DNA of 64,000 bases from a bacterium (GTDB lineage: Bacteria > Patescibacteriota > Patescibacteriia > JACPHY01), in assembly GCA_030646955.1 (NCBI GenBank), contig JAUSKM010000015.1:285-64284 (forward strand), given 5' to 3'. A model generated the notes under the pieces. The model made no database searches and was not told the origin of the DNA. It saw only the letters and a list, made by a program, of their open reading frames with translations. The translations under genes and the position numbers were made by a program. How positions within the stretch are numbered: the first letter of the stretch is position 1; every line of letters starts with the position of its first letter. Shown one piece after another: positions 20,343-43,758 of the stretch.

Positions 20343-20359
20343 GCGTACGAGCGCGATGC

Positions 20360-20809
20360 TTACTTCTGCTTCCGGGCGAGCGCGAGGATTGCGTCGGTCT
20401 TCACCTTTGCTTCTTGCGTAAGAAACCACCGGTTGAGCCGCGGGATGACGTGCAGCCATCGAACGATGTCTCCGTGCGCTTCCCGCACATCCACCGGACC
20501 ACGCACGAACATGGCTTCAAGGCGTTCTGCAAGACGGCTGGCAGCGCCACGGAATGCTTGCTGCACCTGCGGGTCCAAACCCATGTAGAGCGCCTTGAGC
20601 TGCTCATCTGCCAATGCAATCTCAATGTCTTCACGCAATGGTGATTTCTGCACGCGCGGCGCCGCCGAGGATTGCGGAATCGACGCGCGCGCTGCAGGCG
20701 ACGCGCTGGCACGCTCCGGCGCTGCCGGGCGTTGCTCGAGCTGTTCCGTGATGCGCGCGAGGGTGCGCGGCTGCTCGACAATCGGTTGTTCCGGTGATCC
20801 GAGCGGCAT
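20360..20809 (-). CDS. Hypothetical protein (disordered N-terminus, helical C-terminus), 18 nt upstream of the ATPase gene
   Basis: 149-aa ORF on the same strand, tightly spaced with the ATPase gene. The C-terminal half is LKALYMGLDPQVQQAFRGAASRLAERLEAMF.... No motif recognised. Confidence 0.55.
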   Translation of the reverse strand: MPLGSPEQPIVEQPRTLARITEQLEQRPAAPERASASPAARASIPQSSAAPRVQKSPLREDIEIALADEQLKALYMGLDPQVQQAFRGAASRLAERLEAMFVRGPVDVREAHGDIVRWLHVIPRLNRWFLTQEAKVKTDAILALARKQK

Positions 20810-28495: not shown

Positions 28496-28981
28496 TCATG
28501 CGGTATCGCTCACGGGGATCGATTCTGCTGCCACAATGACCTTCGCCGGGCGCAGGCAGCGATCGTGCAATGCGTATCCCTGCTGGGCGACGCGGACGAT
28601 GGCCCCGGGTGCTGTATCTGGATACGACTCCTGGCCCACAATCTCGTGCAGCAGGTAGTCCACCGTCACGCCCTCCTGCGCGGTTGGCGTGACGCGGTGC
28701 TCGGCGAGGAACCGCTCCAATTGACTGGCAATGGCCTCGCACTCGTGGAGGTGCGCTGCGGCCGCCTGCACCGAGTCCACAATAGGCAGGAGCGCTCGAA
28801 GCACGTCCGCGGCCGCAAACTTCGCGTGCTCCTGGCGCGCGCGCTCGTGCTGCTTCTCCGCGTTCACGAGATCCGCAAGCGCGCGTTTCCACTTTTGCTC
28901 CAGCTCCGCAATACGCGCCTGGCACGCGGTGTGGTCTGGCACTTCCGCTTGTGGCGCATCTGCTGGTTGGGTGTCACTCAT
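28496..28981 (-). CDS. grpE: Nucleotide exchange factor GrpE
   Basis: Coiled-coil N-terminus (IAELEQKWKRALADLVNAEKQHER), then LLPIVDS...HEIVGQE...VRVAQQGYALHDRCLRPAKV. Its ATG overlaps the hrcA stop (ATGA at 28981-28978). Confidence 0.9.
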   Translation of the reverse strand: MSDTQPADAPQAEVPDHTACQARIAELEQKWKRALADLVNAEKQHERARQEHAKFAAADVLRALLPIVDSVQAAAAHLHECEAIASQLERFLAEHRVTPTAQEGVTVDYLLHEIVGQESYPDTAPGAIVRVAQQGYALHDRCLRPAKVIVAAESIPVSDTA

Positions 28982-29688
28982 ACGATTCCCATTGCCGCAT
29001 ATCGAATATCTCGAAGCAACTCGAACTGCCGATCGTACGCCATGCGCATGGGCCCCGCAATGCCGATGGTCAATCGATGTCCTTCAGGGAGTGCGAGGTG
29101 CCCCGCAACCGTGCCACACTGGCCGCCGAACGGGTTCCCGTCCCCCAGGATGGCCGCCGCATCTCCCGTGAGCTGCGCATCAATAACTGCAATGGTATTG
29201 TCGAGATCATCGAAGCCCGCCGTGAATGCGTAGAGCGTCTCGCGATCATGGAACTCCGGCTGCACGACGACGTACGAAAGTCCTGTCGCGTACGCGTCGC
29301 CGTGTGCGATCCCCACCACCACTGCCTGCCGCGCCTCGCTGGCGAGCGCGCGCGCAATCGCGTGGCCGGCAAGCCGCACGTCCGCCGCAACCTCCGCGAT
29401 GAGCCGCGCAAACCGCTCCACGCGCTCCGCCGCAATGCGCGCTGCTTGCTGTTGGATGTGCTCCACGTACAGCTCGTACGCCGCGGGCGTTGGCGCACGG
29501 CCGGCAGACGTGTGCGGCTGTACCAGATACCCCTGCGCCTCCAGCGCGGCAAGCTCTGCGCGGATGGTCGCCGGACTCGCGTCAACCCCACGCCGGGCAA
29601 TTTCGCCCGACGACACCGGCTCCGCCGCCTCGACGTATGCCGAGATGACCTCAAAGAGAATGGTTACTTGACGATTGGTGAGCGACAT
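28978..29688 (-). CDS. hrcA: Heat-inducible repressor HrcA (short form, 236 aa)
   Basis: The N-terminal winged helix LTNRQVTILFEVISAYVEAAEPVSSGEIAR...SPATIRAELAALEAQGYLVQPHTSAGRAPT is typical of HrcA. Supported by operon context and an upstream CIRCE. Confidence 0.8.
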   Translation of the reverse strand: MSLTNRQVTILFEVISAYVEAAEPVSSGEIARRGVDASPATIRAELAALEAQGYLVQPHTSAGRAPTPAAYELYVEHIQQQAARIAAERVERFARLIAEVAADVRLAGHAIARALASEARQAVVVGIAHGDAYATGLSYVVVQPEFHDRETLYAFTAGFDDLDNTIAVIDAQLTGDAAAILGDGNPFGGQCGTVAGHLALPEGHRLTIGIAGPMRMAYDRQFELLRDIRYAAMGIV

Positions 29689-29701
29689 ATCCTCTCCCTA
29701 C

Positions 29702-29731
29702 AGCATAAAAAAGTATTGGCACTCTCGTCAA
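29702..29731 (-). promoter_or_regulatory. Candidate sigma-70-like promoter of the hrcA operon, overlapping CIRCE
   Basis: Minus strand: TTGACG (29731-29726), an 18-nt spacer, then TATGCT (29707-29702). A GGGAGAGGA SD follows, then the ATG at 29688. Confidence 0.45.
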
Positions 29732-29742
29732 GAGAGTGCCAA
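29716..29742. promoter_or_regulatory. CIRCE operator (HrcA binding site), variant
   Basis: TTGGCACTC-tcgtcaaga-GAGTGCCAA is a perfect 9-bp inverted repeat with a 9-nt spacer. The canonical form is TTAGCACTC-N9-GAGTGCTAA. Confidence 0.85.
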
Positions 29743-29776
29743 TACTCTCGGCGATTCGCTCGGTTTCCCCGGTGTA

Positions 29777-29857
29777 TCCTTTGCGAGTCCGTGAGGGCGC
29801 AGCAATCTCTCTGCCTGATTGGCCGGGATTACCACGTCGCGGACTCCTCGCAATGAC
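29777..29857. repeat. Two family-T units (one degenerate, one inverted)
   Basis: cctttgcgagtccgtgagggcgcagcaatctctc and ggccgggattaccacgtcgcggactcctcgcaatgac. Confidence 0.7.
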
Positions 29858-29943
29858 ACAAACATACGAAATTCTACCTCTCAAAAAGAACGAGACCCGC
29901 ACTTTCGTACGGGTCTCAGGTAATACTCCTCGAAGTTTGCGGC

Positions 29944-31782
29944 TTACATCATCGACATGTCCAGGATGATCTGCACGGCATCGACGAGGCTCTTGCACGG
30001 CTTCATGTTCGGCTTCTGACGTAGGCTCCTGGTGGAGAGCACGTAGGCCGGAACCGGACCGTAGCCCTCGATCAGAACGGTCGGCTTCCCGGCCTCCAGC
30101 GCGAGAAGCACTTCGCGGAGCGTGCCTTCCTCACCGCCGAGGGTCAGAACGACGTTGCTGTCGGCGATCATCTGCTGACGCATGTCGTCCTTCTCACCCA
30201 CAAACATGACGGGCACCCCGCCGAACGAGTCTTCCGCCCTGCCCTGCATGTAGCTGGGCTGGTAGAGACGCACTTCCGGCTGGGCAACCTTGTCGCTCGC
30301 GAGAGCCGCCCTGAGGACCGCACCCGGATTTCCGCCCGGCGTTCCGGCGAAGAACGAGCAGTGGGAACTGAGGTTGTCGGCCACGAACTGCGCCGCGCCC
30401 TGCGGAAGATCGGGCTGCTTCCCGGATCCGACCACGAGCACGTTGTGACGCGCGTGATTTGCTCCGTTCGGCACGGTCGCCGGCAACGGTTCCTCGGGCA
30501 GGGCGATGAAGTCGGCGACGAGCTTCTTCCACCGCTTGCTGGACGTGATTTTCTTGAGCTTGCGCTCTATCTTCTCGCGCTTGCGCCGCTCGGTGTCCTC
30601 GGCCTTGGCCTGCTTCTGCTGCTCCTTGAACTCGGCCACTTCCTTCTCGTGTTCGGCCCTTCCCTCGGCGACCTGCTGAACGTGTTCCGCGCGCCGATTC
30701 TTCTGACGCTCAGCCCACTTCTTGTGCTGCTCTTCGATCTGGTTGTCGATGTCGGCGGCCACGTAGATGTAGCCATCGGGGACTGCAAGCAGACACCTGC
30801 GGATCGTCTCGGACGCTTTCGTGGGACGCTCCACGACCTTGGCGTAGGTACCGGGGGCGTAGTCGATGCCCATCAGTTCGGGTTTGTCCTCGAAGGTGTT
30901 GTCCGGATCGACGCCCCAGTTGACGTTGCGGTGGTGGTCGAGATCCTGGCCGTACTCGTTCGAGCCGACGATGCTCCAGCTCGAGTGACCGATCCGGTTG
31001 CGCCACGCGTCTGCATCGAAGTATTTGACCAGCACCCGGATCTGACGACCGGAATCGACCGTCGAATCCACGAAGAGGACGTGCTTGCCCCGGAGCGTTC
31101 CCTTCTTGGCGAACTCCTCGAGCTTGTCCTCGTCGAGCTGACCACCGCCCTGATCCACCTTGATGCTGAACATCTCGGTGAGACCGAGAGCGCGCCGCAG
31201 GATGATGCAGGGAAGACGACCACCGCGGTCGATGGACACGAGCACGGTCTGCTCGATGCTCACCTTATGGGAACGACGCAGATGTTTGACGACCGTCTGA
31301 TGCAGGCCGTAGTACGGAATCGCACGGGCGATGCGCTCCATCTCGCCGACCGACTCGAGCATAGCGATTGCCCGCTCGTACTCGGCGCGGCTGATGCGCT
31401 TCTTGATCTTGTCGATCCCATCGTCGGCGTCCATGATGTTGCGGTCGCGCAGGAGGGGGATCTTGAAATAGCCCTTCTTCTTGTCGTCGTCCTCGTCGAT
31501 GCCGCGCGTGTAGGCGAAGCGAAAGACCTCGTTAGCATCGTCCACGAGGCGCATGCGCTCGACGTGGCTCAAGGACTCGAAATCCTCGATCCTACTCTGC
31601 TCGAGCTTGAGGCGCGGAGTGAAGTCCTCCTTCTCGAACGTCGGCTCGACGTAGGGCGGGAGCCCGATGATCCCGTTCCGATACGCCTGCAGGAGGCTCC
31701 ACTGGATCTCCGGCATGGCCACGACGAGACGCTGAGCGAGAGACTGACGACATCCGAGAGACATGTGCATGCCGAATGACAT
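29944..31782 (-). CDS. Multidomain protein: unknown N-domain + type I phosphoribosyltransferase core + Lys/Glu-rich coiled coil + LOG/SLOG Rossmann domain
   Basis: 612 aa. PRT motifs: VSIDRGGRLPCIIL and GKHVLFVDSTVDSGRQ (aa 233-247). Coiled coil roughly aa 345-420 (EEQHKKWAERQKNRRAEH...KREKIERKLKK). LOG-type motifs: NVLVVGSGK, TPGGNPGAVL, LTLGGEEGTLRE (aa 546-557), KPTVLIEG. The stop codon is TAA. Confidence 0.75.
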   Translation of the reverse strand: MSFGMHMSLGCRQSLAQRLVVAMPEIQWSLLQAYRNGIIGLPPYVEPTFEKEDFTPRLKLEQSRIEDFESLSHVERMRLVDDANEVFRFAYTRGIDEDDDKKKGYFKIPLLRDRNIMDADDGIDKIKKRISRAEYERAIAMLESVGEMERIARAIPYYGLHQTVVKHLRRSHKVSIEQTVLVSIDRGGRLPCIILRRALGLTEMFSIKVDQGGGQLDEDKLEEFAKKGTLRGKHVLFVDSTVDSGRQIRVLVKYFDADAWRNRIGHSSWSIVGSNEYGQDLDHHRNVNWGVDPDNTFEDKPELMGIDYAPGTYAKVVERPTKASETIRRCLLAVPDGYIYVAADIDNQIEEQHKKWAERQKNRRAEHVQQVAEGRAEHEKEVAEFKEQQKQAKAEDTERRKREKIERKLKKITSSKRWKKLVADFIALPEEPLPATVPNGANHARHNVLVVGSGKQPDLPQGAAQFVADNLSSHCSFFAGTPGGNPGAVLRAALASDKVAQPEVRLYQPSYMQGRAEDSFGGVPVMFVGEKDDMRQQMIADSNVVLTLGGEEGTLREVLLALEAGKPTVLIEGYGPVPAYVLSTRSLRQKPNMKPCKSLVDAVQIILDMSMM

Positions 31783-31863
31783 GGATCACCTCTTGTGGGA
31801 CGCGTGGTTGGAATGAAAAGAACCGTACAGCCACCATGACTGTACGGGACAACGTGCTTTTTG

Positions 31864-33195
31864 TCAAGCAGGGACGCCACGCACGTTCCGGACGATTGCC
31901 AACGGCGTCTGCTCGCTGCTCTGACCCAGTGGATTGTCTCGAAATACTGCACGAATACGCGCACGATCCACGCCCTCGGACACGCCCAACACCTCGACGC
32001 CAAGATCATTAGCATCGATAATCGCAATGCCAACACCAATACGTCGCGCGAGGCGCTCCGCAACGGCATCGGGGTCCTTGGGCCCCAGGACGGCATACGC
32101 GTTGTACGGCGGGAGCGTGTACGAGCACGGCCCATCAATCGCATTCACGCTGTGCCCTGCCAAACGGTAGAAAAGCCCGGAGATACCAAATGGTTTTGTG
32201 ACGGCCGCGACGGCTGCGGCGAGCAGGATGCGCAACGTGCCGGCTTCGCGCAGCGCAAGTTCCATCGTCTCCGGCCGCGCAAGCCCGATGCCGGCAGGAT
32301 TCTTGGTGACGAACCGCACGAGCTGTGTTGCCAGCCACCGCGGACGAATCTCGTCCACGCGGTATGCACGCCCCTGTGTGATCGCCACCACGCGCTCGGA
32401 AATCGCCAGCACGTCATCCGGCCGCAGGTACTCCGTGGTGTGCTTCGTCACCAGCTCCAAGAGATCATCGTGCGGCAGCACGACGTTTGTCCTCACCGGA
32501 TAGCGCGCAAGACGCTCCTCCTGATCCCGCACGTAGCTCACCACAAGCTCCTTGCCCGCGTTTGGCACGAACGGAGGATCTGCGTCACCCGCAAAATGCG
32601 TGCGACGAACCGCGTCCAATGCCGCATCCAACAGCCGCTCGGCATCGCTGCCAAGCGAAGCAATGATGGTGCGTCCCCAGCGGCTGTACCCATAGAGCGC
32701 GCGCAGGGCGATGCGACGCCCCACCGATGGCGTCGCAGCATGATCGCGCGCGTTATCAATGATGTCCGCTGCCTTCACCATTCGAACGGCCCGCGGCGCA
32801 TCCAAAAACGCGCGTGCTTGCGACCACTTGGCATCGCGCCCTGGCGTCCAGGTGAGCCAACGCACCGCACCTGCAACCGCGTCGCCGAATGCGGTAGCGA
32901 TATCGTCTACCCGAACGCCGCAATCCTCCACCACGTCATGGAGCAGCGCGGCAGCAATCGCATCAGCATCGCGCACGCGGAATTCCTCCAACAACGATAC
33001 CGCGACCCGCATGGGATGAATGATGTACGGAATCGCCGGATTCCCTTTCCGCGTCTGTCCCGCATGCGCATCACGAGCAAAGGACAACGCCGTGCGAATA
33101 CGGTGTTGCTCTGCTTCGTTGCATGACGCAAGCGCCCGATCAAATCGAGCTTCCTGGGCAGCACAATCAACAAATTCCTTCCACGACACGGGCAT
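31864..33195 (-). CDS. Fusion of a RelA/SpoT-type HD hydrolase domain and a CofE (F420-0:gamma-glutamyl ligase)-like domain
   Basis: HD domain: AHAGQTRKGNPAIPYIIHPMRVAVSLL...AALLHDVVEDCGV...FGDAVAGAV. C-terminal half: DDVLAISERVVAITQGRAY...VGIAIIDANDLG...NPLGQSSEQTPLAIV. The track start at 33219 is GTG; the first ATG is at 33195. Confidence 0.7.
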   Translation of the reverse strand: MPVSWKEFVDCAAQEARFDRALASCNEAEQHRIRTALSFARDAHAGQTRKGNPAIPYIIHPMRVAVSLLEEFRVRDADAIAAALLHDVVEDCGVRVDDIATAFGDAVAGAVRWLTWTPGRDAKWSQARAFLDAPRAVRMVKAADIIDNARDHAATPSVGRRIALRALYGYSRWGRTIIASLGSDAERLLDAALDAVRRTHFAGDADPPFVPNAGKELVVSYVRDQEERLARYPVRTNVVLPHDDLLELVTKHTTEYLRPDDVLAISERVVAITQGRAYRVDEIRPRWLATQLVRFVTKNPAGIGLARPETMELALREAGTLRILLAAAVAAVTKPFGISGLFYRLAGHSVNAIDGPCSYTLPPYNAYAVLGPKDPDAVAERLARRIGVGIAIIDANDLGVEVLGVSEGVDRARIRAVFRDNPLGQSSEQTPLAIVRNVRGVPA

Positions 33196-33272
33196 ACATA
33201 TTCTAGTGTAGCACGACACTGCACTTGACGAACTCCCAGAAGTCGCTACGCTGGTAATGCATACACACTGCT

Positions 33273-33344
33273 GGCCCCATCGTCTAGCGGCTAGGACGGT
33301 GCCCTCTCACGGCACAAACCCGGGTTCGATTCCCGGTGGGGTCA
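33273..33344 (+). tRNA. tRNA-Glu (anticodon CUC)
   Basis: GGCCCCA TC GTCT AGCGGCTA GGAC G GTGCC CTCTCAC GGCAC AAAC CCGGG TTCGATT CCCGG TGGGGTC A. Folded by hand. Confidence 0.9.
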
Positions 33345-33347
33345 TAT

Positions 33348-33381
33348 GAAAACCGCCCTCCGATTTCGGAGGGCGGTTTTC
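33348..33381. terminator. Bidirectional rho-independent terminator (tRNA-Glu / murF)
   Basis: gaaaaccgccctccga tt tcggagggcggttttc is a perfect 16-bp stem flanked by A and T runs. It abuts the murF stop at 33383. Confidence 0.85.
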
Positions 33382-33382
33382 A

Positions 33383-34708
33383 TTATGCGGTCCACGCGCG
33401 GTCCTGGCGGCAGAGGAGTGCTGGTGCGCGGAGGGGATCGGCCATGAGCTCACGGACGATGCGCTCGAGACGGACGCCTTGGGAACCCTTGATGAGTACC
33501 ACGTCGCCGGGTGCCAGAAGATCCTGCACAAAGCGGCCCGCCTCCTGGGCGCGGGAAAATTCTAGGATGCGATCCGCGGGCATGCCCGCTGCGCGCGCGG
33601 CAGCGGCGGTCTGGCGGCTGGCGGCGCCCACACAGATCAGGTACGCAAGCGACTGCGCCGCGGCCAACCGCCCGATCCGCTCGTGCTCCTGAATCGTGAG
33701 CGTCCCCAGTTCCAACATGTCCCCAAGCACCGCGATGGCACGGCCCGGCACCGTACGCTGCTCCAGCGCGTGCAGGGCAACGGCAACCGCGAGCGGCGAT
33801 GCATTGTAGCTGTCATCCAAAAGCGCCGTCTCCTTGATGCCGGGGATGATACGCATGCGACCCGGCGCCGGTTGGTACTGCCGCAGCGCGTGCGAAATCT
33901 CCACGAGGTGCATGCCCAGTCCCAAACCCACCGCCGCCGCGGCAAGCGCCGCGTGCATGTGCCCTGCCCCCAGACACCCCGGGAGATGCACCGGCACCGT
34001 TGCGCCCCCTGCAACAATTTTGAACGTCATCCCGCCCGGAAGCACAAATCCTCCTGTCGTTCCTTGTTCCTTGTCCCTTACCCCTTGTGCTCCAGAGGTA
34101 ACTCGGTACTCGATCCCGCGTACGTCCGCATCCTCGTGCGTGCCGTACGAAATGACGCGCGCCTTCGTGCGCTCCGTCATCGCCCACACATGGATATCAT
34201 CACGGTTGAGTACTGCGATGTCATCGCGGCTGAGCACGCTGACGAGCTTGCGTTTCTCGCTCGCCACGCGGTCCACGGACTTAAAGAATTCCGTGTGCGC
34301 TGCGCCAACCGCCGTGACGACAGCAACGTGCGGACGCGCAATGCGTAGGAGGTAGCTCAAATCGCCTGGATGGTCCGCGCCATACTCCAGCACGAGCGCC
34401 TCCGGGTACCGCAACCCACGCACGGCTGCGTACCACTTCCCCCGCGCAAGCAACGCAACCCAGCGCCACGGCGACCGGCCGGGCGCCCGCCCTCCGATGA
34501 TCGCCACCGGCAACCCAATCTCGTTGTTGTAGTTCTTCGGCGCAGCGCGAACGTCCCAATCGGCGTCCAACACCGCACGGATTGCCTCACGCGCCGACGT
34601 TTTCCCCACACTGCCCGTGATACCCACGATCAGCGGTTGCTGCCGCCGCACCACTGCACGGGCGAGGAAGGCGAGGAGTGATTCCAAGAATGTACGCATA
34701 GCGATCAA
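33383..34708 (-). CDS. murF: UDP-MurNAc-tripeptide--D-Ala-D-Ala ligase
   Basis: GITGSVGKTSAREAI P-loop, the Mur ligase middle and C-terminal domains, and dcw context after ftsI. Confidence 0.9.
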   Translation of the reverse strand: MIAMRTFLESLLAFLARAVVRRQQPLIVGITGSVGKTSAREAIRAVLDADWDVRAAPKNYNNEIGLPVAIIGGRAPGRSPWRWVALLARGKWYAAVRGLRYPEALVLEYGADHPGDLSYLLRIARPHVAVVTAVGAAHTEFFKSVDRVASEKRKLVSVLSRDDIAVLNRDDIHVWAMTERTKARVISYGTHEDADVRGIEYRVTSGAQGVRDKEQGTTGGFVLPGGMTFKIVAGGATVPVHLPGCLGAGHMHAALAAAAVGLGLGMHLVEISHALRQYQPAPGRMRIIPGIKETALLDDSYNASPLAVAVALHALEQRTVPGRAIAVLGDMLELGTLTIQEHERIGRLAAAQSLAYLICVGAASRQTAAAARAAGMPADRILEFSRAQEAGRFVQDLLAPGDVVLIKGSQGVRLERIVRELMADPLRAPALLCRQDRAWTA

Positions 34709-34714
34709 CGCACG

Positions 34715-36496
34715 TTACTCCACCCGCGGCGGAACGCCGTCATACTGGACGATATACGCTGCGAGGTCGCCGAACAAGGGGGCGGCAGTGGAATCCGCAA
34801 AGAGCCGCTGTGCACGGTCAATGCGAACAACCATGGAAAAGGTTGGCCGATCCACCGGTCCGATTCCTACGAACGTATGGATCGTGTCATCTGAATAGCC
34901 CGGTCGATCACGGTACGGAATCTGCGCCGTGCCGGTTTTCCCGCCAATGAGGTACCCGCGCACCCCCGCGCTCTTGGCGTACCCGTCTCGCACCACGCTC
35001 ACCAGCATGCCCTGGAGTATCACCGCTGCGCGTTGACTCACCGCGCGATGCACAATGCGCGGCGCAAAGGTTTTGCGTGTGCCATCCGGCGCCACAACCG
35101 CCTCCACGATGCGCGGCTCCATGAGGTTCCCGCCGTTTGCGATTGCTGCGTACGCTACGGCAAGCTGAAGCTGCGTGGCGGTAATGCCCTGCCCAAACGA
35201 CGCGGTGGCGAGATAGATGTCGCCGCGCTGCACGAGGTTCGCAATGTTCCCGGGCGACTCCGCATCGAGCGCGATCCCCGTCCGCGCACCAAACCCAAAC
35301 CGCTCGATGGCCTCGCGGAACCGATCACGCCCCAGCTGCATCGCCGCGTACACGGTTCCCGTATTAATCGAAAATCGAAGCACGTCCGTCATCGTCGAAC
35401 GCCCGTAGACCTTATGGAGCGAGTTTGTGATGGTGTGATTATTCAACGTGACGCTGCCGGTGTCCGTAAACTCTGTATTTGGCCCTACCGCATCCGCTTC
35501 GATTGCCGCAGCCATGGTGACGGCCTTGAACACCGAGCCGGGCTCGTATGCGTCCGATACGGCTGGGGTCTGGTACACGCCGATATCCTCCACATCGCCA
35601 TACCGATTGGGATCGAACGCCGGCACGGCGCACATTGCACGCACGGCACCGGTCACGGGATGGAGGATGACAATAGATCCGCTGGCCGCGCCGTGTTTTG
35701 TAACCGCATCCTCCAGCCGGCGGCACACTTCCAGTTGGAGCTCCCGTTCAATAGTAAGGTACACGTCCGACCCATGTTCCGCCTGGCGGCCATCGCGTTT
35801 CCCAAACACGATGAGGCGACCGGCGGCATCGCGCTCCCCCTCCAGGAATCCCGAGGTGCCGGCGAGCACGTCTTCGAACGCGCCCTCGACGCCGTACCGT
35901 CCCGCGATGCGCGAATCCTCGTCTGCGCCAACGAAACCCGTAAGGTGCGCCATGCGCGTCCCATCGGGATAGAAGCGCGCGATCGTGGGCTGCGTATGGA
36001 TGCCGGGCAGCGCGAGCGCGAGCACCGAATCGCGCAGCTCCGCAGATGCATCGCGCGTGACGGGCTCGTAGGGGTCATTGGGTTTGCTCAGACGCTCCGC
36101 AAGCGCAACCTCTGCCGCCTCGTCCAACTGCAGCAGTGGCGCCAGGAGCCCTGCGGCGCGCTTGGGCTGTGCGATCTCCGTCGGCACCGCGTAGACGGTG
36201 TACGTTCGCTGATTCGTCGCCACCGGGAAGTACCCGTCACTCGCCTGCCGATCGTGTACAAAAATTTCACCACGCTCCGCCGTGAGCTGCCGGAACACCT
36301 CGTGCTGCCCGGCCGCAAGCCCCGTGTACCACTCGTGGTCGCGCACCTGCACAATCCAGAGCCGCACGACCACCACCGCCCACAGCAACACGAACACGCC
36401 CGCGACCACCACGAGGCGCGGATCCCGGCCGCCGCGCGGACGCGCCGCAGCCCGCCCCGCCCCCCATCCATTCCGCATCATGCGCGCGGCTGCCAT
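34715..36496 (-). CDS. ftsI: Class B penicillin-binding protein / transpeptidase (FtsI-like)
   Basis: TM anchor (LVVVAGVFVLLWAVVVV), SxxK (GSVFKAV), SxN (FSINTG), KTG (GGKTGTA). Start placed at the ATG at 36496, just after the upstream stop. Confidence 0.85.
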   Translation of the reverse strand: MAAARMMRNGWGAGRAAARPRGGRDPRLVVVAGVFVLLWAVVVVRLWIVQVRDHEWYTGLAAGQHEVFRQLTAERGEIFVHDRQASDGYFPVATNQRTYTVYAVPTEIAQPKRAAGLLAPLLQLDEAAEVALAERLSKPNDPYEPVTRDASAELRDSVLALALPGIHTQPTIARFYPDGTRMAHLTGFVGADEDSRIAGRYGVEGAFEDVLAGTSGFLEGERDAAGRLIVFGKRDGRQAEHGSDVYLTIERELQLEVCRRLEDAVTKHGAASGSIVILHPVTGAVRAMCAVPAFDPNRYGDVEDIGVYQTPAVSDAYEPGSVFKAVTMAAAIEADAVGPNTEFTDTGSVTLNNHTITNSLHKVYGRSTMTDVLRFSINTGTVYAAMQLGRDRFREAIERFGFGARTGIALDAESPGNIANLVQRGDIYLATASFGQGITATQLQLAVAYAAIANGGNLMEPRIVEAVVAPDGTRKTFAPRIVHRAVSQRAAVILQGMLVSVVRDGYAKSAGVRGYLIGGKTGTAQIPYRDRPGYSDDTIHTFVGIGPVDRPTFSMVVRIDRAQRLFADSTAAPLFGDLAAYIVQYDGVPPRVE

Positions 36497-36503
36497 AGGT
36501 TCT

Positions 36504-37664
36504 TCACAATCTCCCCTCTCCCACCGGGCTGTAGCCATTGCGAACCTCCTCGCCATCGGTGTAGCCGTCGCCGTCACTGTCCCGGCTGTTCAGGTCACTG
36601 CCGTACAACGCCTCGCGAACGTCGGAAAGACCGTCGGCATCGGCATCGGAACCTGCGGGCAATGCGTGCGACGGCTGCGGTTGCACGCCGAAGAGCTGCT
36701 CGATGACATCGTCGAGCGGGAGCGCGCTCGGAGGCGGCGCCATGGTCACGGGAACGTTCCAATCTGACCACTGGATGTCTGCGGTGCCGGTGAGGCGGAT
36801 GTTCGTTGCGTCCTCGCGCACCGCGAACGGGAACTGCGCGCGCACGAACGCACCCGCGCCCGTGAGCCACACATCGATCGTAATGTCCCGCACCCGCGGA
36901 ACGACTGCGGTCTGGAGCAATGCGGCCAGCGTCTCCCCACTCTCGCTTCCTGCGAGGAGCGCGATGAGCGCAGCGAGCGCTTGCTCGTTGATCGTCGTGC
37001 GGAGGTGCCGCGCGCGGACGCCGTCTACGCGCTCGCGCCCGAGATCCTCCTGGAACATGAGCAGTGGGTGCGTCCGCGCTTGTTCACGCAGCGCCGCGGC
37101 GCGACTCGCGTCGTACGGTGCGCTGGGTGCTGCCGCGCCTCCTATGCGCTGCTGGAGCCGCGCAAAGGTTGCACTATCCGCCACTACCCACCGCTCGCCG
37201 AGCATGCCCTGGACGATGCCCGCGCCGAGCGCCACGGCAGGCGCCGATGTCCCGCCGAGGAACGAAAAATCCCGCAGTCGGAGGTACTGCATCTCGCCAA
37301 TCGCTCGCGTGTCGAGCAGGAAGCCCAGCGTCGCATCACCGATCGCGCCCGCTGCCGTGATCGTCCCATCGCTTGCACGCGCGCCATCGTGCTCGCCGCG
37401 CCGTCCGTCATACGTCAGATGGAGCGACGCGGATTGCTCGTCCTGCTCCCACGCGATGCGCACGTCCGCGCGTGTGCGCACGGACACCGCCTCGACGGCC
37501 TGCACCCACGCACGATCGAGCGCCACCTGCGGATGCCGCGCCACCGCGCTCCACGGCCCCGCGCCCATCACCGCCGCGACCGTGCCAGCGGCTGCCGCGA
37601 CAATAATCGCAACAACTGCGGGCACGATGCCTCTTGGTTCCGTACCGTGTCGAAGCATAGTCAT
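36504..37664 (-). CDS. Membrane-anchored hypothetical protein with a C-terminal TSP3-like calcium-binding repeat
   Basis: N-terminal anchor VPAVVAIIVAAAAGTVAAV. The C-terminus is GSDADADGLSDVREALYGSDLNSRDSDGDGYTDGEE (a DxDxDG pattern). Confidence 0.6.
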   Translation of the reverse strand: MTMLRHGTEPRGIVPAVVAIIVAAAAGTVAAVMGAGPWSAVARHPQVALDRAWVQAVEAVSVRTRADVRIAWEQDEQSASLHLTYDGRRGEHDGARASDGTITAAGAIGDATLGFLLDTRAIGEMQYLRLRDFSFLGGTSAPAVALGAGIVQGMLGERWVVADSATFARLQQRIGGAAAPSAPYDASRAAALREQARTHPLLMFQEDLGRERVDGVRARHLRTTINEQALAALIALLAGSESGETLAALLQTAVVPRVRDITIDVWLTGAGAFVRAQFPFAVREDATNIRLTGTADIQWSDWNVPVTMAPPPSALPLDDVIEQLFGVQPQPSHALPAGSDADADGLSDVREALYGSDLNSRDSDGDGYTDGEEVRNGYSPVGEGRL

Positions 37665-38009: not shown

Positions 38010-41000
38010 TTACGGTTCCTCGCGTGATACTGCCGCTGCCGGCGCCTCGGCAATACCGGGTGATACCGTCATATCCTGCGGAGCCGTCGTCCCCGCATCG
38101 CGGAGTGCCCCGGTGTGCACACTCGGGTGCAGCGCGAGATCCACGCCAACAATGCCCTCGCGTTTGCGCATGTCCAGCGTACTCGAGCGCGCCGGGTCAT
38201 ACCCCCCCTTCTGCGCCGTCACATAGTAGACGCTCTTGCCCGCAAGGAACTGGTAACGGCCGTATCGGTCGGTCGCCGCGGTCTCCAGAAGTTTTCCAAA
38301 CTCAATATCGAACAGACGGACAACCGCGAGGTGGAGCGGGTGCTTAGAAACCACATCCCGAATCGCACCCCAGGATTTCACGGCGCGCGCGCGGATAGCA
38401 AGTCGCCGGAAGAGCACGTAGAAGAGGAGGTTGATGCCCAGCACGGCACCGATGAGCGGACGCGGCGAAATGGCGAAGGATGCGATGGAGAGCACGAGGC
38501 CGACATCCGAAACCGCGCCACTGATGATGCGCCCGTAGTGGTTGCGCAGGACATGCTTGTCGAGCGTCATCGTCCGCTCCGCTTTCGCGTCCAGCGGGAT
38601 ACTCTTGATGACGAACCCGCCACCCTCCGGCACCGCGAACGGCTCGCCGTAGGTGCAATCGAGGAAGTCGCCATCCTCGCGGCGCCCCGCAAGGCGCGTG
38701 GAGGGGTATGCGTACTGCGGATGGCGCACGTCCAATCGGTACGATCCTGCTTGCTTCACCGCAAAGTTGTACCGCCCCAGGTGGTCCGTCACCTCGGTGG
38801 CAACCACGCGACCCGTCGCAACATCCAGAAGCCGGACGGTAGCGAGATCCACCGGCCGCTTCGAGAGCGCGCCATACACCGTCCCCCACGCGGTACGCTT
38901 GCGTCGCGAAAAGAGGCGGCTTGGCGAGAGAAGGAAGCCAACGAGGTACTGCGCGTACGCGAGGAGCTGAAACCCGTGCACGGCGGTCGCGGTGTTCGTC
39001 GCGACGGCAACCACCACCGCTGGCGCAACGACACGCTCCGTCGTTGTCTCAACGGCAGGGTTGTCCAGCACGCGTTCCTGCACCGCCACGGCGGTCTTCT
39101 CCGCGGCCTTCGCCGTTGCCTTCGCGGTGGTCTGCGTTGCACTGACGACGGCCTTCGCGGTCGCGGTGGTTGCCTCGGCAACCACCGTCGCGGTACGCGC
39201 CGCGATGCCTTCCGTTTCCTCGGTGCGATCAAACGCGCTCGCGCAGTCAGGATCCGCTGGGTAGTCCAGGAGCGCGTCGCCATCGTTATCCATACCATCT
39301 GCGCATGCGGCTGGCGCGATCGCAAACGGGAGCACCTGCGGGAGCGGCGAGACGTTCCCTGCGGAATCGCGCGCGGCGACGCGGATGGTGGAGCCGCCTG
39401 GTGGGAGTGCGAGCGTTGTACGGAACTCCCATGCGACACTCGTCACGCGGTGCGTAAAGGTTGCCGATTCTCCGCCGATGGTAATGAGGATCGCATCAAC
39501 ATCTCCTGCCGATGCCGCAGGGATGATACCGGCGAGCTGAATCAGCACGTCGAACGCGTCCGCGCGCGATGCCGCAATCCCCTGCTTCGTTGTCCGAACC
39601 TCGCGAACCTCCGGCGTTCCTGGCGGCGTGCGATCCACCACAAACGGAGCAGCCGCCGTCAGCGTCAGCCCTCCAGCGACAACCGCATCGCCGCGCACCT
39701 CATGTGCTCCTTCTGCCACGATGCCGGGGAGGAGTGCCGTGAAACCGCCGAGCGCGTCCGTCTCCACGGAAGCAATGGGGGTACCGTCGAGCGCAATACG
39801 TACCATGGTCTCCGATGGTCCGCGCCCACTCACCACAACGGTTTGCGCATTGGTTGCAGAGCCCGCGATGGGTGCCGTGAGCGTGAGATCGCGCAAGGGC
39901 GGCGATACCATACGCACCTGCGCAGCAGTAGATTGCCCGCTCGTTGTCACACTGATGCGATGCGATCCCTCGCTCACATTGCGAATGGTCAACGAGAAGC
40001 TCTGATCCGCAGCCGCAGTGAGATTCCAATGCGTCCGATCGTCAAGCGAGACCGTCACCGATGCATCGGATGATGCCGCACCACGAATGACGAGATCACC
40101 CGCAGGCAACACCGCGCCATCAACAGGCGCGAGGAGCGCGAACATCGTCGCCGCGTTTGCGCGCGTGACGCCGGGCGCGGGGGACGCCGTGCCCGGCGCT
40201 GCTGACGTGCCCGGCGCAGCAACGTCTGGAATCGGGACCACCGGCGGTGCTCCCGGTTGCTGCGGAGGCGGCGTTGGCTGCGGCGTAACAGTAAGCGGTG
40301 CGCCAACGGGCTCCGCCGGAGGCGCCTCCTGCGGCGGCACTGGTTGTTGCGGCGGCGCTGTGTCCGGCGGAGGAGCAAGCGGCCCAATGACGCTGAACGT
40401 GAGCGGCGCGAGTGCAACCGTACGCGGCGCCACATCCGCAAGGGGCACATATGCCATAGTCGGCGCAACCGTGAGGGATGCGCCCGCAGCTGCCGTTGTC
40501 CGGAAATCAATGCCGAACACCGCCGTTGCACCGATGCCGAGCGTGGCAAGTCGGAATGTCGCAACACCCGGCGCAGTGGCGCCAACATCCGCAGCATCCG
40601 CGTCGCCTGCATCCGATGCACGGACGCCGTTGACTACGAGCGTGCCCGGCATTGGCACGGCACCTGCCGGGATAGGGATAGAAACAACAAGATTGCGCAC
40701 GATGCCGGTCCCCGCATGCGCAACACGCACCACGACGGGAATGCGATCATCCGTACGAACATCCGGAGATGCGAGCGTGGTCTGCACCTGCGCGGACGCA
40801 TCGCCGCGATCGCTGCCGACGGTGGTACTCACAATGGTCGTCGCGGAGCACGCTGATGGCACGCCAACGTGATTGCGCGCCTCGGCACAAAACGCGTAGG
40901 TATGATCCGGCTCAAGGCCAATGACAAGCACGCGGCCGCGCTCCCACTCTGCGAACGTCCGCCATACGGCATCAGGCGTACCAAAAAGCCCGTCTGCAGC

Positions 41001-42851
41001 AACGTACCGGCCAGATTGTTTATCCTTGATCGCATACCGAATGTCGTCCGCGTTCCCGCTGCCAGCACCAAACGCAATGACCGCGCTCGATCGCGTCACA
41101 TCTGATGCGGTCGCTGCTCCCGGCACGACGGCAAGCGTCACCGCACAGGGATACGAATCGGAAACTGGCGAGATCTTCGTGCCGCTCAACGCGACAACGC
41201 GCCGGCCGCAGTACTCGGTGTCCGGCGCGAGCGCACGTTCCTCCACGAATGTTGCCGCGGGATCGTCCGTCCGCGCCAGCTCCTTCCCATCCGCGTCACG
41301 AATCGCAAACCCCGATGCCGCACCCCCGCTATTCGCAAATGGCCATCGGATGCTCGTGGCGGCGGGCACCGGCGTTGCAATCGTTGGCGCCCCGATGGTG
41401 TCATCTACCGTGTACGCAATACGCAACGCGGTGAGGCGCGGATCCGCCTCGCCGTTCGTTGAAATGAGCGTTGCGCGCCACCGCAGCGATGAACCCGTTA
41501 CCGTGAACGTCCATACCGTCCCGGGCGTGACCGGACCCTCCCACCGTGCGGCACCATCCGCTGCGCTCACCTCGTAGGTGATTGCCGCGCCTGCCGGCAC
41601 GGTCGCCGTGGGCGTGAGCGTCGCGGTAAGGATGCGATGCGGAGTGTCATCAACGGGGTTCGCGGTCAACGCGATACCAGGGGATGCGAGGCCGGACATC
41701 AGGACGTTCGCGCCGTCCGCCCGTCCCGCAATGACGCTCCCGTGCGCGGGGTATGTTGGCGCAATGCCAAACGCGGACGGCGCACTGCCAACCCATCCGA
41801 GGGCAAGCGCGGTGGCAGTCCCGCCCTCCACGCGGGCAACGCCGCCACTCCTCCCAACCAGGAGCTGCCCGCCGGGGCCGTATGCAATCGCGCTGGCGTC
41901 CTCGCTGCGATACGCGATACTCCACCCAGCGCCGCCGTCCGTTGTCTCGTACACGCCATCAAGGAACAGTGCGGCAACGCGCCCCGTACTGCTCGCGGCA
42001 AGCGCGGTCGCATACGGCACGGAGATGCCAGCCGGATTGCGCAGCGTCCACGTGGTACCAGCGTCCACGGAACGGTACAGGCCATCGCGCAATGTCGAAA
42101 GGAAGACCGTATGGTTCGTCTGGTACGCAGGATCCACCGCAACGGCGCGGATGTCACCGTTCACGCGCACTGCATCAGACACGCCGGAGGAAATATCGAA
42201 CCATGATACGCCGCTATCTTGGCTTCGCAGCACGCGATCGAACGCCGCGACAAATACCGTGCGGTCTGTCGCGTACGCCGGCGAGAATGCGATACCAAAT
42301 CCATTCACGCTCCCGTCTACCTGCAGCCACGTCACACCGCCATCAATCGTACGCCAAAGGCCGCTCCCGTTTGTCATGGCAAACGCGATCCCATCGCCGG
42401 AGAATGTTGGGGAAACCGCAACCGCAACCGCCTCGCTGCCCGTCGCAAGCATGCGCAGCCACGTTGATCCTCCGTCCGTGGTGCGATACACGCCGTCGCT
42501 TGCAGCGATGAATGCCGTACGACTTGCGGCGTACTCTGGCGTATACGCGACACCGCTGACGCGGCGGCCATCAAACGCGGCGGCGGTCACCCAGACATTC
42601 CCGTTGTCAACCGCGCGACGCAGACGTACGTCCCCTGCTGCACTGTCCCAAGACGCACTCCAACCCGAAGCGAGCGCAGCGGGCACCGAGGAAAATTCCT
42701 CGACGTACACGCGCTCTGTTGCCGCATCAATTTTGGTGACGACGGCACCCGCAAGAACGAGAAGGAGCGCGGCGACTCCAAAGCCAAGCGCATGGTGACG
42801 CGGGAACAATGCAGCCATAGGAACAACAAACAGCCGAGCACGCAGCTCCAT
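38010..42851 (-). CDS. Giant multidomain surface protein (BNR/Asp-box propeller, FN3/Ig-like domains, Pro-rich linker, DNDGD motif, TM segments, 2x carboxypeptidase-regulatory-like domains)
   Basis: About 1613 aa from the ATG at 42851. Five Asp-box repeats: TTDGGSTW, TIDGGVTW, SQDSGVSW, SVDAGTTW, TTDGGAGW. Pro-rich stretch PPPDTAPPQQPVPPQEAPP. CADGMDNDGDALLDYPADPDC. Two segments like VRLLDVATGRVVATEVTDHLGRYNF, separated by TM helices. Confidence 0.8.
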   Translation of the reverse strand: MELRARLFVVPMAALFPRHHALGFGVAALLLVLAGAVVTKIDAATERVYVEEFSSVPAALASGWSASWDSAAGDVRLRRAVDNGNVWVTAAAFDGRRVSGVAYTPEYAASRTAFIAASDGVYRTTDGGSTWLRMLATGSEAVAVAVSPTFSGDGIAFAMTNGSGLWRTIDGGVTWLQVDGSVNGFGIAFSPAYATDRTVFVAAFDRVLRSQDSGVSWFDISSGVSDAVRVNGDIRAVAVDPAYQTNHTVFLSTLRDGLYRSVDAGTTWTLRNPAGISVPYATALAASSTGRVAALFLDGVYETTDGGAGWSIAYRSEDASAIAYGPGGQLLVGRSGGVARVEGGTATALALGWVGSAPSAFGIAPTYPAHGSVIAGRADGANVLMSGLASPGIALTANPVDDTPHRILTATLTPTATVPAGAAITYEVSAADGAARWEGPVTPGTVWTFTVTGSSLRWRATLISTNGEADPRLTALRIAYTVDDTIGAPTIATPVPAATSIRWPFANSGGAASGFAIRDADGKELARTDDPAATFVEERALAPDTEYCGRRVVALSGTKISPVSDSYPCAVTLAVVPGAATASDVTRSSAVIAFGAGSGNADDIRYAIKDKQSGRYVAADGLFGTPDAVWRTFAEWERGRVLVIGLEPDHTYAFCAEARNHVGVPSACSATTIVSTTVGSDRGDASAQVQTTLASPDVRTDDRIPVVVRVAHAGTGIVRNLVVSIPIPAGAVPMPGTLVVNGVRASDAGDADAADVGATAPGVATFRLATLGIGATAVFGIDFRTTAAAGASLTVAPTMAYVPLADVAPRTVALAPLTFSVIGPLAPPPDTAPPQQPVPPQEAPPAEPVGAPLTVTPQPTPPPQQPGAPPVVPIPDVAAPGTSAAPGTASPAPGVTRANAATMFALLAPVDGAVLPAGDLVIRGAASSDASVTVSLDDRTHWNLTAAADQSFSLTIRNVSEGSHRISVTTSGQSTAAQVRMVSPPLRDLTLTAPIAGSATNAQTVVVSGRGPSETMVRIALDGTPIASVETDALGGFTALLPGIVAEGAHEVRGDAVVAGGLTLTAAAPFVVDRTPPGTPEVREVRTTKQGIAASRADAFDVLIQLAGIIPAASAGDVDAILITIGGESATFTHRVTSVAWEFRTTLALPPGGSTIRVAARDSAGNVSPLPQVLPFAIAPAACADGMDNDGDALLDYPADPDCASAFDRTEETEGIAARTATVVAEATTATAKAVVSATQTTAKATAKAAEKTAVAVQERVLDNPAVETTTERVVAPAVVVAVATNTATAVHGFQLLAYAQYLVGFLLSPSRLFSRRKRTAWGTVYGALSKRPVDLATVRLLDVATGRVVATEVTDHLGRYNFAVKQAGSYRLDVRHPQYAYPSTRLAGRREDGDFLDCTYGEPFAVPEGGGFVIKSIPLDAKAERTMTLDKHVLRNHYGRIISGAVSDVGLVLSIASFAISPRPLIGAVLGINLLFYVLFRRLAIRARAVKSWGAIRDVVSKHPLHLAVVRLFDIEFGKLLETAATDRYGRYQFLAGKSVYYVTAQKGGYDPARSSTLDMRKREGIVGVDLALHPSVHTGALRDAGTTAPQDMTVSPGIAEAPAAAVSREEP

Positions 42852-43002
42852 TGCCGATGCGTGCGCGAACGGCTCACGGAACAATCTTTTGTTAGTATAC
42901 CACGCAAATTTCTCTTGCGCCCACAGGGTACTGGGCGGTACAATGGCAATGTGCATGCGTGACACTGCACGGGGCACGCTCCCGCGCACCACGACTCCAT
43001 CC

Positions 43003-43758
43003 ATGTTCAATCATCAGGATTTTTTCACACTCGAGCGCCGTGCAAAGCAGCAACGCGTTGCCGCGATTGCAGGCAGCGCGCTCGCCGCGATCCTGCTCGT
43101 GACCTTCGCAACCGCGACCGACGCGTCCCGGGCTGTGGATAGCGCATCGCTCGCGCTGGTGTCCGCGGATTGCGCGCCGGTCGTACGCGGCCGCACCATC
43201 CACGTCGCCTGGGAGACCACCGTCGCAGCGGATGAAAATTCCGTCATGGTTGGATCGGACGACATGTTCGGCACCACCGTCGCCGCAACGCCGGGGACGC
43301 GCCACGCAGCAGTCATCGCAGACCTCCCCAGCGGCGCGACCGTCCACTATCGCGTCACATCGCGACGTACTGCCACGGAGGAGACCGCCGCATCCGGTAC
43401 CTGCGTGGTCACGGTGGATGGCCTCGACACCGCCGCGCCACGCTTCACCGATGTCATTGTGGACAGTGTTGTCACCGATGCGGCCGCGGTCCACTTCGCA
43501 ACCAACGAACCCGCCGCGCTCCTCGTTACCGTGACATCCTTTGATGCAGACGGCGCCATCGTCACCGCATCGGAGACCACCGCCACCCAGGATATCGTGT
43601 CGCCTCCCGCCCACCGCATCGTCCTCTCCGGCCTCACCCCCGGCACGCGCTACACCGTCCGCGCAGACGCCATCGACAACGCTGGCAACTCCACCACCTT
43701 GACACCCCCCATCGAATTCCGTACGCTGCATGTGCCCGCCCCCGTAGCTCAGTGGTAG
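43003..43758 (+). CDS. Membrane-anchored protein with two FN3-like domains
   Basis: MFNHQDFFTLERRAKQQRVAAIAGSALAAILLVTFA provides the anchor. Two beta-sandwich-like repeats end in GATVHYRVTS and GTRYTVRADAIDNAGNS. The ORF has no stop until 43758, which is 21 nt inside tRNA-Lys. Confidence 0.6.
   Translation: MFNHQDFFTLERRAKQQRVAAIAGSALAAILLVTFATATDASRAVDSASLALVSADCAPVVRGRTIHVAWETTVAADENSVMVGSDDMFGTTVAATPGTRHAAVIADLPSGATVHYRVTSRRTATEETAASGTCVVTVDGLDTAAPRFTDVIVDSVVTDAAAVHFATNEPAALLVTVTSFDADGAIVTASETTATQDIVSPPAHRIVLSGLTPGTRYTVRADAIDNAGNSTTLTPPIEFRTLHVPAPVAQW

Follow-up and report, generated by a model that had tools for sequence, protein, structure and literature searches.

In the 64,000-nucleotide stretch of contig JAUSKM010000015.1 analysed here (the window), two neighbouring genes between a tRNA-Glu gene and hrcA, which we call gene 1 and gene 2, encode two uncharacterised fusion proteins made from known domains. 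Gene 1 joins a MESH1-type HD hydrolase domain to a CofE-fold domain, and gene 2 combines an N-terminal domain of its own, a type I phosphoribosyltransferase (PRTase)-like domain, a long helix and a SLOG cluster-4 (TM1055/molybdenum cofactor (Moco) carrier/LOG-like) domain. An earlier note on this DNA had proposed that the two genes form one nucleotide-centred module. We find it probable, instead, that they are independent transcription units, which are neighbours only in this lineage and have the roles proposed below. Of the two, gene 2 is of greater interest, as its family is rare and unnamed and includes a domain that is almost absent elsewhere.

Both genes were called as open reading frames (ORFs) on the minus strand and are separated by a spacer of 81 nt, in agreement with the layout described before. 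Gene 1 extends over 31864..33195 and encodes 443 aa from the ATG at 33195. The first GTG, at 33219, would give an alternative ORF of 451 aa (31864-33219), but the starts of aligned homologues agree better with the ATG. Gene 2 (29944..31782) encodes 612 aa, from an ATG to the TAA stop already reported. The tRNA-Glu(CTC) gene (33272..33345), which passes the threshold of the Rfam scan, is on the plus strand, opposite to gene 1, and hrcA (28978-29688) is located beyond gene 2. The gene 2 protein is identical to Q7T01_01390, an NCBI protein from a metagenome-assembled genome (MAG) labelled 'bacterium', and the nearest named relatives of both genes are from Candidatus Uhrbacteria, of the Candidate Phyla Radiation (CPR, Patescibacteria). 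The source genome is that of a CPR bacterium related to this group.

We compared the surroundings of 63 gene 2 loci, obtained from 18 species-representative genomes, 40 metagenome contigs and five look-ups of encoding contigs; 27 of them have at least 2 kb of flanking DNA on both sides, and 19 at least 5 kb. Neither the HD half nor the CofE half of gene 1 was found by tblastn in any of the other gene 2-relative loci (0/63), and gene 2 was likewise absent from the loci of gene 1 and its CofE-like relatives (0/6). In GCA_030647005.1, the closest sequenced relative, the orthologues of gene 2 (80% identity) and gene 1 (73%) are on different contigs, the former between a DsbD/thioredoxin gene and an unknown gene, and the latter in the order PBP-murF-...-YceI-gene 1-HPPK-hrcA-grpE-dnaK (PBP, penicillin-binding protein). 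The corresponding order in another Uhrbacteria genome is murF-gene 1-AAA_33 kinase-hrcA. Gene 1 orthologues are thus found in the order PBP-murF-...-gene 1-X-hrcA-grpE-dnaK, where X is the HPPK gene, the AAA_33 kinase gene or, in the window, gene 2. This indicates that the chromosomal place of gene 1 in Uhrbacteria is fixed, between murF and hrcA, and that the slot next to hrcA is variable.

The surroundings of gene 2 differ from locus to locus. For an orthologue with 83% identity, the 244 nt upstream contain stops in all three same-strand frames and no gene, and an RNase J-like gene follows downstream. Clustering of the neighbours revealed no recurrent one, the commonest family being present in 6/63 loci, and the families found in five loci correspond to synteny inside one Micrarchaeota lineage. 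When searched by tblastn against the window and all loci, the neighbouring genes for nucleoside phosphorylase, uracil phosphoribosyltransferase (UPRTase), HPPK, YceI and AAA_33 kinase were each detected in their own locus only. Homologues of genes 1 and 2 never co-localise in the loci examined, so that the module of the earlier note is not borne out.

The spacer between the two genes also argues for their separation. It contains a terminator-like hairpin (31823..31847, minus strand), with an 11-bp stem followed by a T tract, and a promoter-like site ahead of gene 2 (31839..31867, minus strand; TTGACA-17-TACAGT, 10/12 consensus matches), after which a ribosome-binding site, AAGAGGTG, precedes the gene 2 ATG by a few bases. 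A second terminator-like hairpin, with a 12-bp stem and a T tract, is found directly after gene 2 (29891..29918, minus strand), and hrcA has its own promoter-like site at 29731-29702. These terminator-like and promoter-like sites are all matches to consensus patterns, and the adjacency of the two genes in this lineage could still permit co-expression by read-through, which counts against full independence.

Codon usage sets the two genes apart as well. The GC content at third codon positions (GC3) reaches its maximum among 19 window genes in gene 2 (0.84) and its minimum in gene 1 (0.67). The Lys codons of gene 2 show a strong preference for AAG (AAG/AAA = 37/5), much like those of dnaK. The codon bias of the two genes is opposite, and overall GC is flat across the region. 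A foreign origin of gene 2 was considered and rejected, as its overall GC does not deviate and its high GC3 resembles that of dnaK and ftsW; no meaningful direct or inverted repeats flank the gene as a signature of insertion. Gene 2 had also been described as unusually Lys-rich for this window, and it does contain 6.9% Lys, but dnaK is richer, with 8.7%.

The AlphaFold model of gene 2 has a pLDDT of 91.9 and a pTM of 0.66, and the family alignment and profile used below comprise 33 members. The family-specific N-domain (31345..31734, minus strand; residues 17-146) is mixed alpha/beta in the model. It remains unassignable, as previously stated, and has no match in Pfam or NCBIfam. A search with its profile retrieved 30 of 1.84 billion representative proteins. 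When eight of these matches were scanned, seven had a SLOG4 domain, and four of the seven also gave a weak PRTase match.

The N-domain is preceded by a peptide of 16 residues (1-16; window 31735-31782), which is disordered in the model. All family members start with a Gly/Met/Ser-rich segment followed by a Gln/Leu-rich one, MGMSMGLSLRQSL.QRL..LP..NWSLV, and in some relatives (P0244, P0246-P0248 and P0115 were examined) the Gln/Leu-rich segments are repeated in an N-terminal extension of about 140 aa. A relation of this N-terminus to the sigma-54 region I peptide was rejected, since the likeness is superficial and no Pfam match was obtained with E up to 0.01 for the relatives with long extensions.

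The PRTase-like domain (30763..31344, minus strand; residues 147-340) contains a pyrophosphate (PPi) loop, VDRGGR, and a phosphoribosyl pyrophosphate (PRPP) loop, FVDSTVDSGRQ. Pfam Pribosyltran scores 19.4 bits over residues 174-252 of the window protein, below the cutoff of 26.3, and PF00156 is recorded for many of its homologues. The 33-member profile matches the archaeal purine PRTases 4trb (E 4e-4) and 1vdm (E 9e-4) with the loops aligned, and a fold search with the model gave HPRT and 6-oxopurine PRTases. These results agree with the type I PRTase core recognised earlier at nt 31042-31080, which encode residues 235-247, VLFVDSTVDSGRQ. Both loops (DRGGR for PPi, FVDSTVDSGRQ for PRPP) are invariant in the whole family, as is a long hood segment, GSNE...NWGxDPDxTFED..LMGxDY (NWGVDPDxTFED for the domain of the window protein). 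Where PRPP loops usually have a second acid, all 33 aligned members have Ser (D239-S240), and thus FVDS instead of DD or ED.

The PRTase-like domain is followed by a Lys/Glu-rich segment (30511..30750, minus strand; residues 345-424), previously predicted to be a coiled coil. Its composition is as described, but the model shows one long helix, assigned by DSSP to residues 345-413. The length of the segment varies in the family, and about 45 residues are missing in many relatives (alignment columns 450-530).

The SLOG cluster-4 domain (29950..30447, minus strand; residues 446-611) is Rossmann-like, with the motifs GTPxGNPG and LGGxxGTLxE and Arg535. It is assigned to cluster 4 on the LDcluster4 profile, where its Pfam score of 23.4 is just below the cutoff of 26.3, together with its SLOG fold. 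The 33-member profile matches TM1055 (1rcu) with E 5e-6, and in structure the domain is nearest to TM1055 and the Moco carrier proteins. GTPxGNPG, Arg535 and GGxxGTLxE, which includes Glu557, are conserved; Glu557 and Arg535 align to the RK / PGGxGTxxE region of LOG proteins with an offset of one residue, the motif here being GGxxGTxxE. Pfam PF03641 (Lysine_decarbox, LOG family) does not match the window protein, and the structure of PpnN (9hs1) is among the fold matches of gene 2. The LOG/SLOG domain of the earlier note, located from nt 30112-30141 (residues 548-557, LGGEEGTLRE), is thus confirmed as a SLOG domain of the TM1055 and LDcluster4 type.

Homologues of gene 2 (n=119) are mostly full length (526-630 aa) and share 31-85% identity. 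Their named CPR sources are Uhrbacteria, Yanofskybacteria, Parcubacteria and Peregrinibacteria, and their named archaeal sources are Micrarchaeota, Woesearchaeota, Nanoarchaeota and Diapherotrites; binning assigned a small number of contigs to Gammaproteobacteria, Nitrospira, Methylomirabilis or Oligoflexia. Species-representative genomes contribute 18 loci among 185,579 genomes. The family is rare, unnamed and strongly conserved, and occurs mainly in CPR bacteria and DPANN archaea. The genes on either side of one Uhrbacteria orthologue, P0012, encode a PNP_UDP_1 nucleoside phosphorylase and a UPRTase. Some relatives carry additions to the N-domain/PRTase/SLOG4 core, namely two C-terminal Fis-type helix-turn-helix (HTH_8) domains in P0251 (991 aa) and a helical tail of about 1,100 aa in P0249 (1700 aa), a hint that in some lineages the protein has a regulatory or scaffold function. 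In a close CPR relative and several DPANN contigs (L070:2155-3504, L025:10391-12280, L050, L053 and L058), gene 2 homologues adjoin a gene for an RNase of the beta-CASP/metallo-beta-lactamase type, RNase J-like or aCPSF1-like, which may be a coincidence.

CPR bacteria and DPANN archaea are generally held to be unable to make nucleotides de novo. The most likely role of gene 2, judged from its sequence, is in nucleotide salvage or homeostasis, and the protein may handle purines or other nucleotides in episymbiotic CPR/DPANN cells that rely on scavenged ones. Its Gpt/archaeal-type PRTase would transfer the phosphoribosyl group of PRPP to a base held in the family-specific invariant hood pocket, and its SLOG cluster-4 domain would either cleave or sense a phosphorylated nucleotide-like ligand. 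An active PRTase with a specific acceptor is favoured because of the Gpt/archaeal-type core, the PPi loop, the general-base Asp and the large invariant hood. A salvage role is further hinted at by the position of P0012 between nucleoside phosphorylase and UPRTase genes in one Uhrbacteria locus, by the occurrence of the family mainly in CPR/DPANN MAGs, by the dnaK-like codon bias, and because defence and viral signals were not found (see below).

Several observations weigh against this role. The Ser in the PRPP loop is invariant, so that catalysis by gene 2 is not assured and the PRTase-like domain could be a PRPP/nucleotide sensor, as in PurR. The SLOG domain is closest to TM1055 and the Moco carriers, which are binders or have unknown function, and is less close to proven LOG hydrolases. 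The nucleoside phosphorylase/UPRTase context is restricted to one locus, 18 loci among so many genomes fit an accessory gene better than a core salvage enzyme, and the relatives with Fis-type HTH domains, such as P0251, hint at a regulatory role.

These observations bear on another reading, in which gene 2 is mainly a sensor or regulator whose PRTase fold binds PRPP or a nucleotide, whose SLOG domain binds a second ligand, and whose helix transmits the signal. PurR and PyrR of B. subtilis are PRPP/nucleotide-binding regulators with a PRTase fold. The loss of the second acid in every aligned member, the closeness of the SLOG domain to the ligand-binding Moco carriers and TM1055, the HTH_8 domains of P0251 and the 1,100-aa tail of P0249 are all in line with such a protein, as is the pTM of 0.66, which suggests mobile domains. 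However, the Pfam scan gave no DNA-binding or other output domain in the window protein, and the conservation seen in active enzymes extends to the PPi loop, to the Asp in the D-S-G segment and to a large invariant hood pocket. Moreover, uracil PRTases are active with a D-P motif at the same position. We regard a mainly sensory or regulatory function as unlikely, and salvage or homeostasis as the better description of gene 2.

There is also a small chance that gene 2 represents an undescribed class of single-chain enzyme, exchanged between CPR bacteria and DPANN archaea, in which the PRTase works in tandem with a LOG-like N-glycosidase. Such an enzyme could exchange one base for another on a phosphoribosyl scaffold, or drive a controlled cycle that uses up PRPP and nucleoside monophosphates. 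Its gate would be formed by the N-domain, which is unique, together with the conserved N-terminal peptide rich in Gly/Met/Ser and Gln/Leu. If this were true, gene 2 would be either a device for scavenging nucleotides that is specific to this lifestyle, or a self-contained conflict protein that depletes nucleotides.

The HD domain of gene 1 (32575..33147, minus strand; about residues 25-215 in the 451-aa numbering) belongs to the RelA/SpoT-homologue hydrolases and is MESH1-like. Pfam HD_4 matches residues 44-160 with 46.1 bits, above the gathering cutoff of 27.2. A profile of the gene 1 family matches human and fly MESH1 in the PDB over the whole domain, with E from 3e-20 to 2e-18 (best match 3nr1, E 3e-20), and also the hydrolase domains of Rel/SpoT, RelH and bacterial small alarmone hydrolases (SAH). 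The AlphaFold model of gene 1 has a pLDDT of 91.3 and a pTM of 0.89, and Foldseek places its N-terminal half on MESH1/SAH structures with target-normalised TM-scores of 0.75-0.81. Profile, solved-structure and fold searches all back the earlier RelA/SpoT-type HD call, and specify it as MESH1/SAH type.

In the motifs H.GQ.RK, PYIIHP, LLHDVVED and KAADIIDN, the residues with which MESH1 binds its metal and performs catalysis have aligned counterparts (GQTRK, IHP, LHDVVED, AADIIDN), and the catalytic RK / H / HD / ED / D..N set is complete. The HD domain is therefore likely an active 3'-(pyro)phosphohydrolase, and, with the catalytic residues intact, it most likely acts on (p)ppGpp-class or related 3'-phosphorylated nucleotides. 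On this basis gene 1 would be a Mn-dependent 3'-(pyro)phosphohydrolase of the MESH1/SAH type, packed against a CofE-fold domain that could be an amide ligase, probably a nucleotide-dependent one. We infer these activities and substrates, like those of gene 2, from sequence and predicted structure.

A hydrolase of this type would be at the centre of the alarmone-controlled salvage or depletion switch suggested in the earlier note, in which gene 1 would remove an alarmone that controls nucleotide salvage or depletion by gene 2, in a lineage-specific module. The targets of (p)ppGpp include purine PRTases and PpnN, a protein of the LOG family that was seen above among the fold matches of gene 2. 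Genes 1 and 2 share a strand, are only 81 nt apart, and have recognisable domains that all handle nucleotides. However, the switch rests on a pairing that is seen in this lineage only and is absent from all other loci examined, including those of the relatives with 80% and 83% identity. The terminator-like hairpin and the promoter-like site in the spacer and the opposite codon bias also argue against it, as do the gene 2 relatives in Parcubacteria, Peregrinibacteria and DPANN, where no gene 1-type fusion was found. Such a module is improbable.

The CofE-fold (F420_ligase-like) domain of gene 1 (31885..32544, minus strand; residues 226-445) scores 46.6 bits with Pfam F420_ligase (PF01996) at residues 242-394, above the cutoff of 25, in a match limited to positions 2-134 of the 218 in the profile. 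Foldseek aligns the C-terminal half with A. fulgidus CofE (2phn; E 5e-7, target-normalised TM-score 0.56). The fused CofE-like region proposed in the earlier note is thus supported by both profile and fold. Only the Pfam superfamily model passes its cutoff in gene 1, as the CofE equivalog models TIGR01916 (28.3 bits, cutoff 180.65) and PRK13293 (19.1, cutoff 274) and the FolC2-type NCBIfam model TIGR04132 (13.4 bits, cutoff 350) do not. By these profiles the domain is not CofE proper. It is 50-60% identical to stand-alone proteins of 250-290 aa, some of them assigned in their NCBI names to MAGs of Bacillota, Clostridia, Limnochordia or Chloroflexi, and its sequence places it in a separate, very conserved subfamily.

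The fusion of HD and CofE-like domains was seen only in Uhrbacteria-like genomes, in about 21 proteins, each labelled Uhrbacteria or plain 'bacterium'. In agreement with the earlier statement that neither fusion architecture has a name, NCBI labels the two window proteins in generic terms ('hypothetical protein' or 'HD domain-containing protein'), and all NCBIfam models stay below their cutoffs. No F420 biosynthesis genes were noted among the window genes examined (the window was partly scanned) or in the flanks of three orthologous loci.

Stand-alone CofE-like genes (50-56% identity) overlap an ATPgrasp_ST ligase gene in two independent contexts, with both gene orders (L027:4976-6795, and L071-L073:6001-8470, where a DUF1643 gene is next), which suggests a conserved, undescribed two-ligase pathway. 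In a contig that is possibly from CPR (L074:8001-13822), a stand-alone CofE-like gene adjoins nrdR-mraZ-rsmH-PBP, and the order PBP-murF-gene 1 is found in the window (31864-36577) and in two Uhrbacteria loci (L020 and L026). The position of CofE-like genes beside division and cell-wall genes may reflect function or synteny alone.

The Chlamydia protein CT611/FolC2, a COG1478 homologue of CofE, complements an E. coli folC mutant, which indicates that CofE homologues can act outside F420 synthesis (PMC1971073, PMC4161248). In line with this precedent, gene 1 could be an enzyme of the pterin/folate pathway, in which the CofE-fold half glutamylates dihydropteroate or folate, as FolC2 does, and the HD domain removes pyrophosphate from dihydroneopterin triphosphate. 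The absence of visible F420 biosynthesis genes near gene 1 is consistent with this role, and its orthologue in GCA_030647005.1 abuts the HPPK (folK) gene. However, that single adjacency carries the proposal, as HPPK adjoins gene 1 in just one genome and was not found in the window by tblastn. The TIGR04132 score is far below its cutoff, the stand-alone homologues pair with ATPgrasp_ST genes or adjoin the division and cell-wall (dcw) genes, and the closest matches of the HD domain are MESH1 and the small alarmone hydrolases. A folate role of gene 1 is a minority reading, and a rather doubtful one.

The earlier note offered a defence-type pair as a second option, and PRTase-SLOG pairings do recur in conflict systems. 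The YpsA branch is paired with a PRTase gene in such systems (PMC6459960), and in ShosTA a hydrolase-PRTase toxin that disrupts purine metabolism, ShosT, accompanies ShosA, a DprA-like SLOG protein (PMC11961720). The pair, or gene 2 alone, would then be an anti-phage or conflict system, with gene 2 as a PRTase/SLOG effector that depletes nucleotides, comparable to ShosTA or Thoeris ThsA, and gene 1 as a signal degrader. ShosA (8zva) and the SLOG domain of ThsA (7uxs) are among the fold matches of gene 2, its distribution is sporadic and crosses the boundary between bacteria and archaea, and a chain that combines PRTase with N-glycosidase might in principle burn PRPP. We nevertheless consider this very improbable, since PADLOC models gave no match to either protein at E up to 1, none of 15 pattern matches of the family alignment in IMG/VR viral contigs was confirmed, no TIR, SIR2 or DprA partner was present in the neighbourhoods examined, gene 2 has no conserved partner gene, the neighbours are housekeeping genes at all loci examined (dnaK operon, dcw cluster, parAB-topA and others), and gene 2 is highly conserved at full length, with dnaK-like codons and no flanking mobile-element repeats.

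The remainder of the window is of housekeeping content, with recJ, lepA, dnaX, cysS, dnaJ-dnaK-grpE-hrcA, murF, a PBP gene, murG, ftsW, mraY and pyrG. Directly upstream of hrcA, a perfect 15-nt inverted repeat (29712..29746, no strand assigned) has the CIRCE-like core TTGGCACTC-N9-GAGTGCCAA; by its sequence it is the HrcA operator for this CPR genome's heat-shock operon (hrcA-grpE-dnaK-dnaJ), which begins here as a separate unit. An Rfam scan of 29500-33600 revealed no riboswitches (PRPP, ppGpp or others) and otherwise chance-level hits, one of which (29707-29750) overlaps the CIRCE palindrome. The window also contains a type IV secretion coupling-protein-like gene with TrwB/TraG domains (17922-20459) and an ORF of 1,666 aa with no assigned function (38010-43010). 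A TSP3-repeat protein gene (36504-37664) adjoins this ORF and the dcw genes.

The way in which CPR bacteria and DPANN archaea handle scavenged nucleotides is only partly understood, and gene 2 is a concrete candidate for a lifestyle-specific step in this process. Gene 1 reveals that a CofE-like subfamily, conserved but unstudied and found in organisms where no F420 pathway is visible, can be physically joined to a hydrolase of the alarmone type, and the fusion provides a lead to the substrate class of this subfamily. The reading of the two genes as a switch or a defence pair should not be propagated, as it does not pass the co-localisation test.

Compared with known systems, gene 2 resembles ShosTA and the YpsA systems in domain combination only. 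Like ShosTA, it joins a PRTase to a SLOG-superfamily domain and has an extra domain N-terminal to the PRTase (PMC11961720), and ShosA is a weak fold match. Unlike ShosTA, gene 2 is a single polypeptide instead of two genes, its SLOG domain is of cluster 4 and not DprA, it has no PADLOC match to ShosT or ShosA, and its context is one of housekeeping genes. With the Gpt and archaeal purine PRTases (4trb is S. solfataricus GpT-1 and 1vdm is from P. horikoshii), gene 2 shares the type I PRTase fold, the S/D-R-G-G PPi loop, and the hydrophobic strand followed by a D-x-x-x-D-S/T-G PRPP loop. It differs from them in the invariant Ser at the place of the second acid, in the long invariant hood insert, and in the setting of the PRTase between a novel N-domain and a helix-SLOG tail. 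Within the group of TM1055, Moco carriers and LOG proteins, its SLOG domain is nearer to the branch of binders and proteins of unknown function than to proven LOG enzymes, and, unlike these proteins, it is fused to a PRTase.

The C-terminal half of gene 1 has the fold of CofE and passes the Pfam F420_ligase cutoff, and, like FolC2, it is found in an organism with no visible F420 pathway (PMC1971073). In contrast to both CofE and FolC2, it fails TIGR01916 and TIGR04132, and stand-alone members of its subfamily were seen beside ATPgrasp_ST genes in two independent contexts. Finally, gene 1 shares with MESH1 (HDDC3), SAH and RelH a single HD hydrolase domain of about 180 aa, in which all motifs are kept, whereas, unlike in MESH1 and SAH, this domain is covalently joined to a CofE-fold domain, against which it is predicted to pack.

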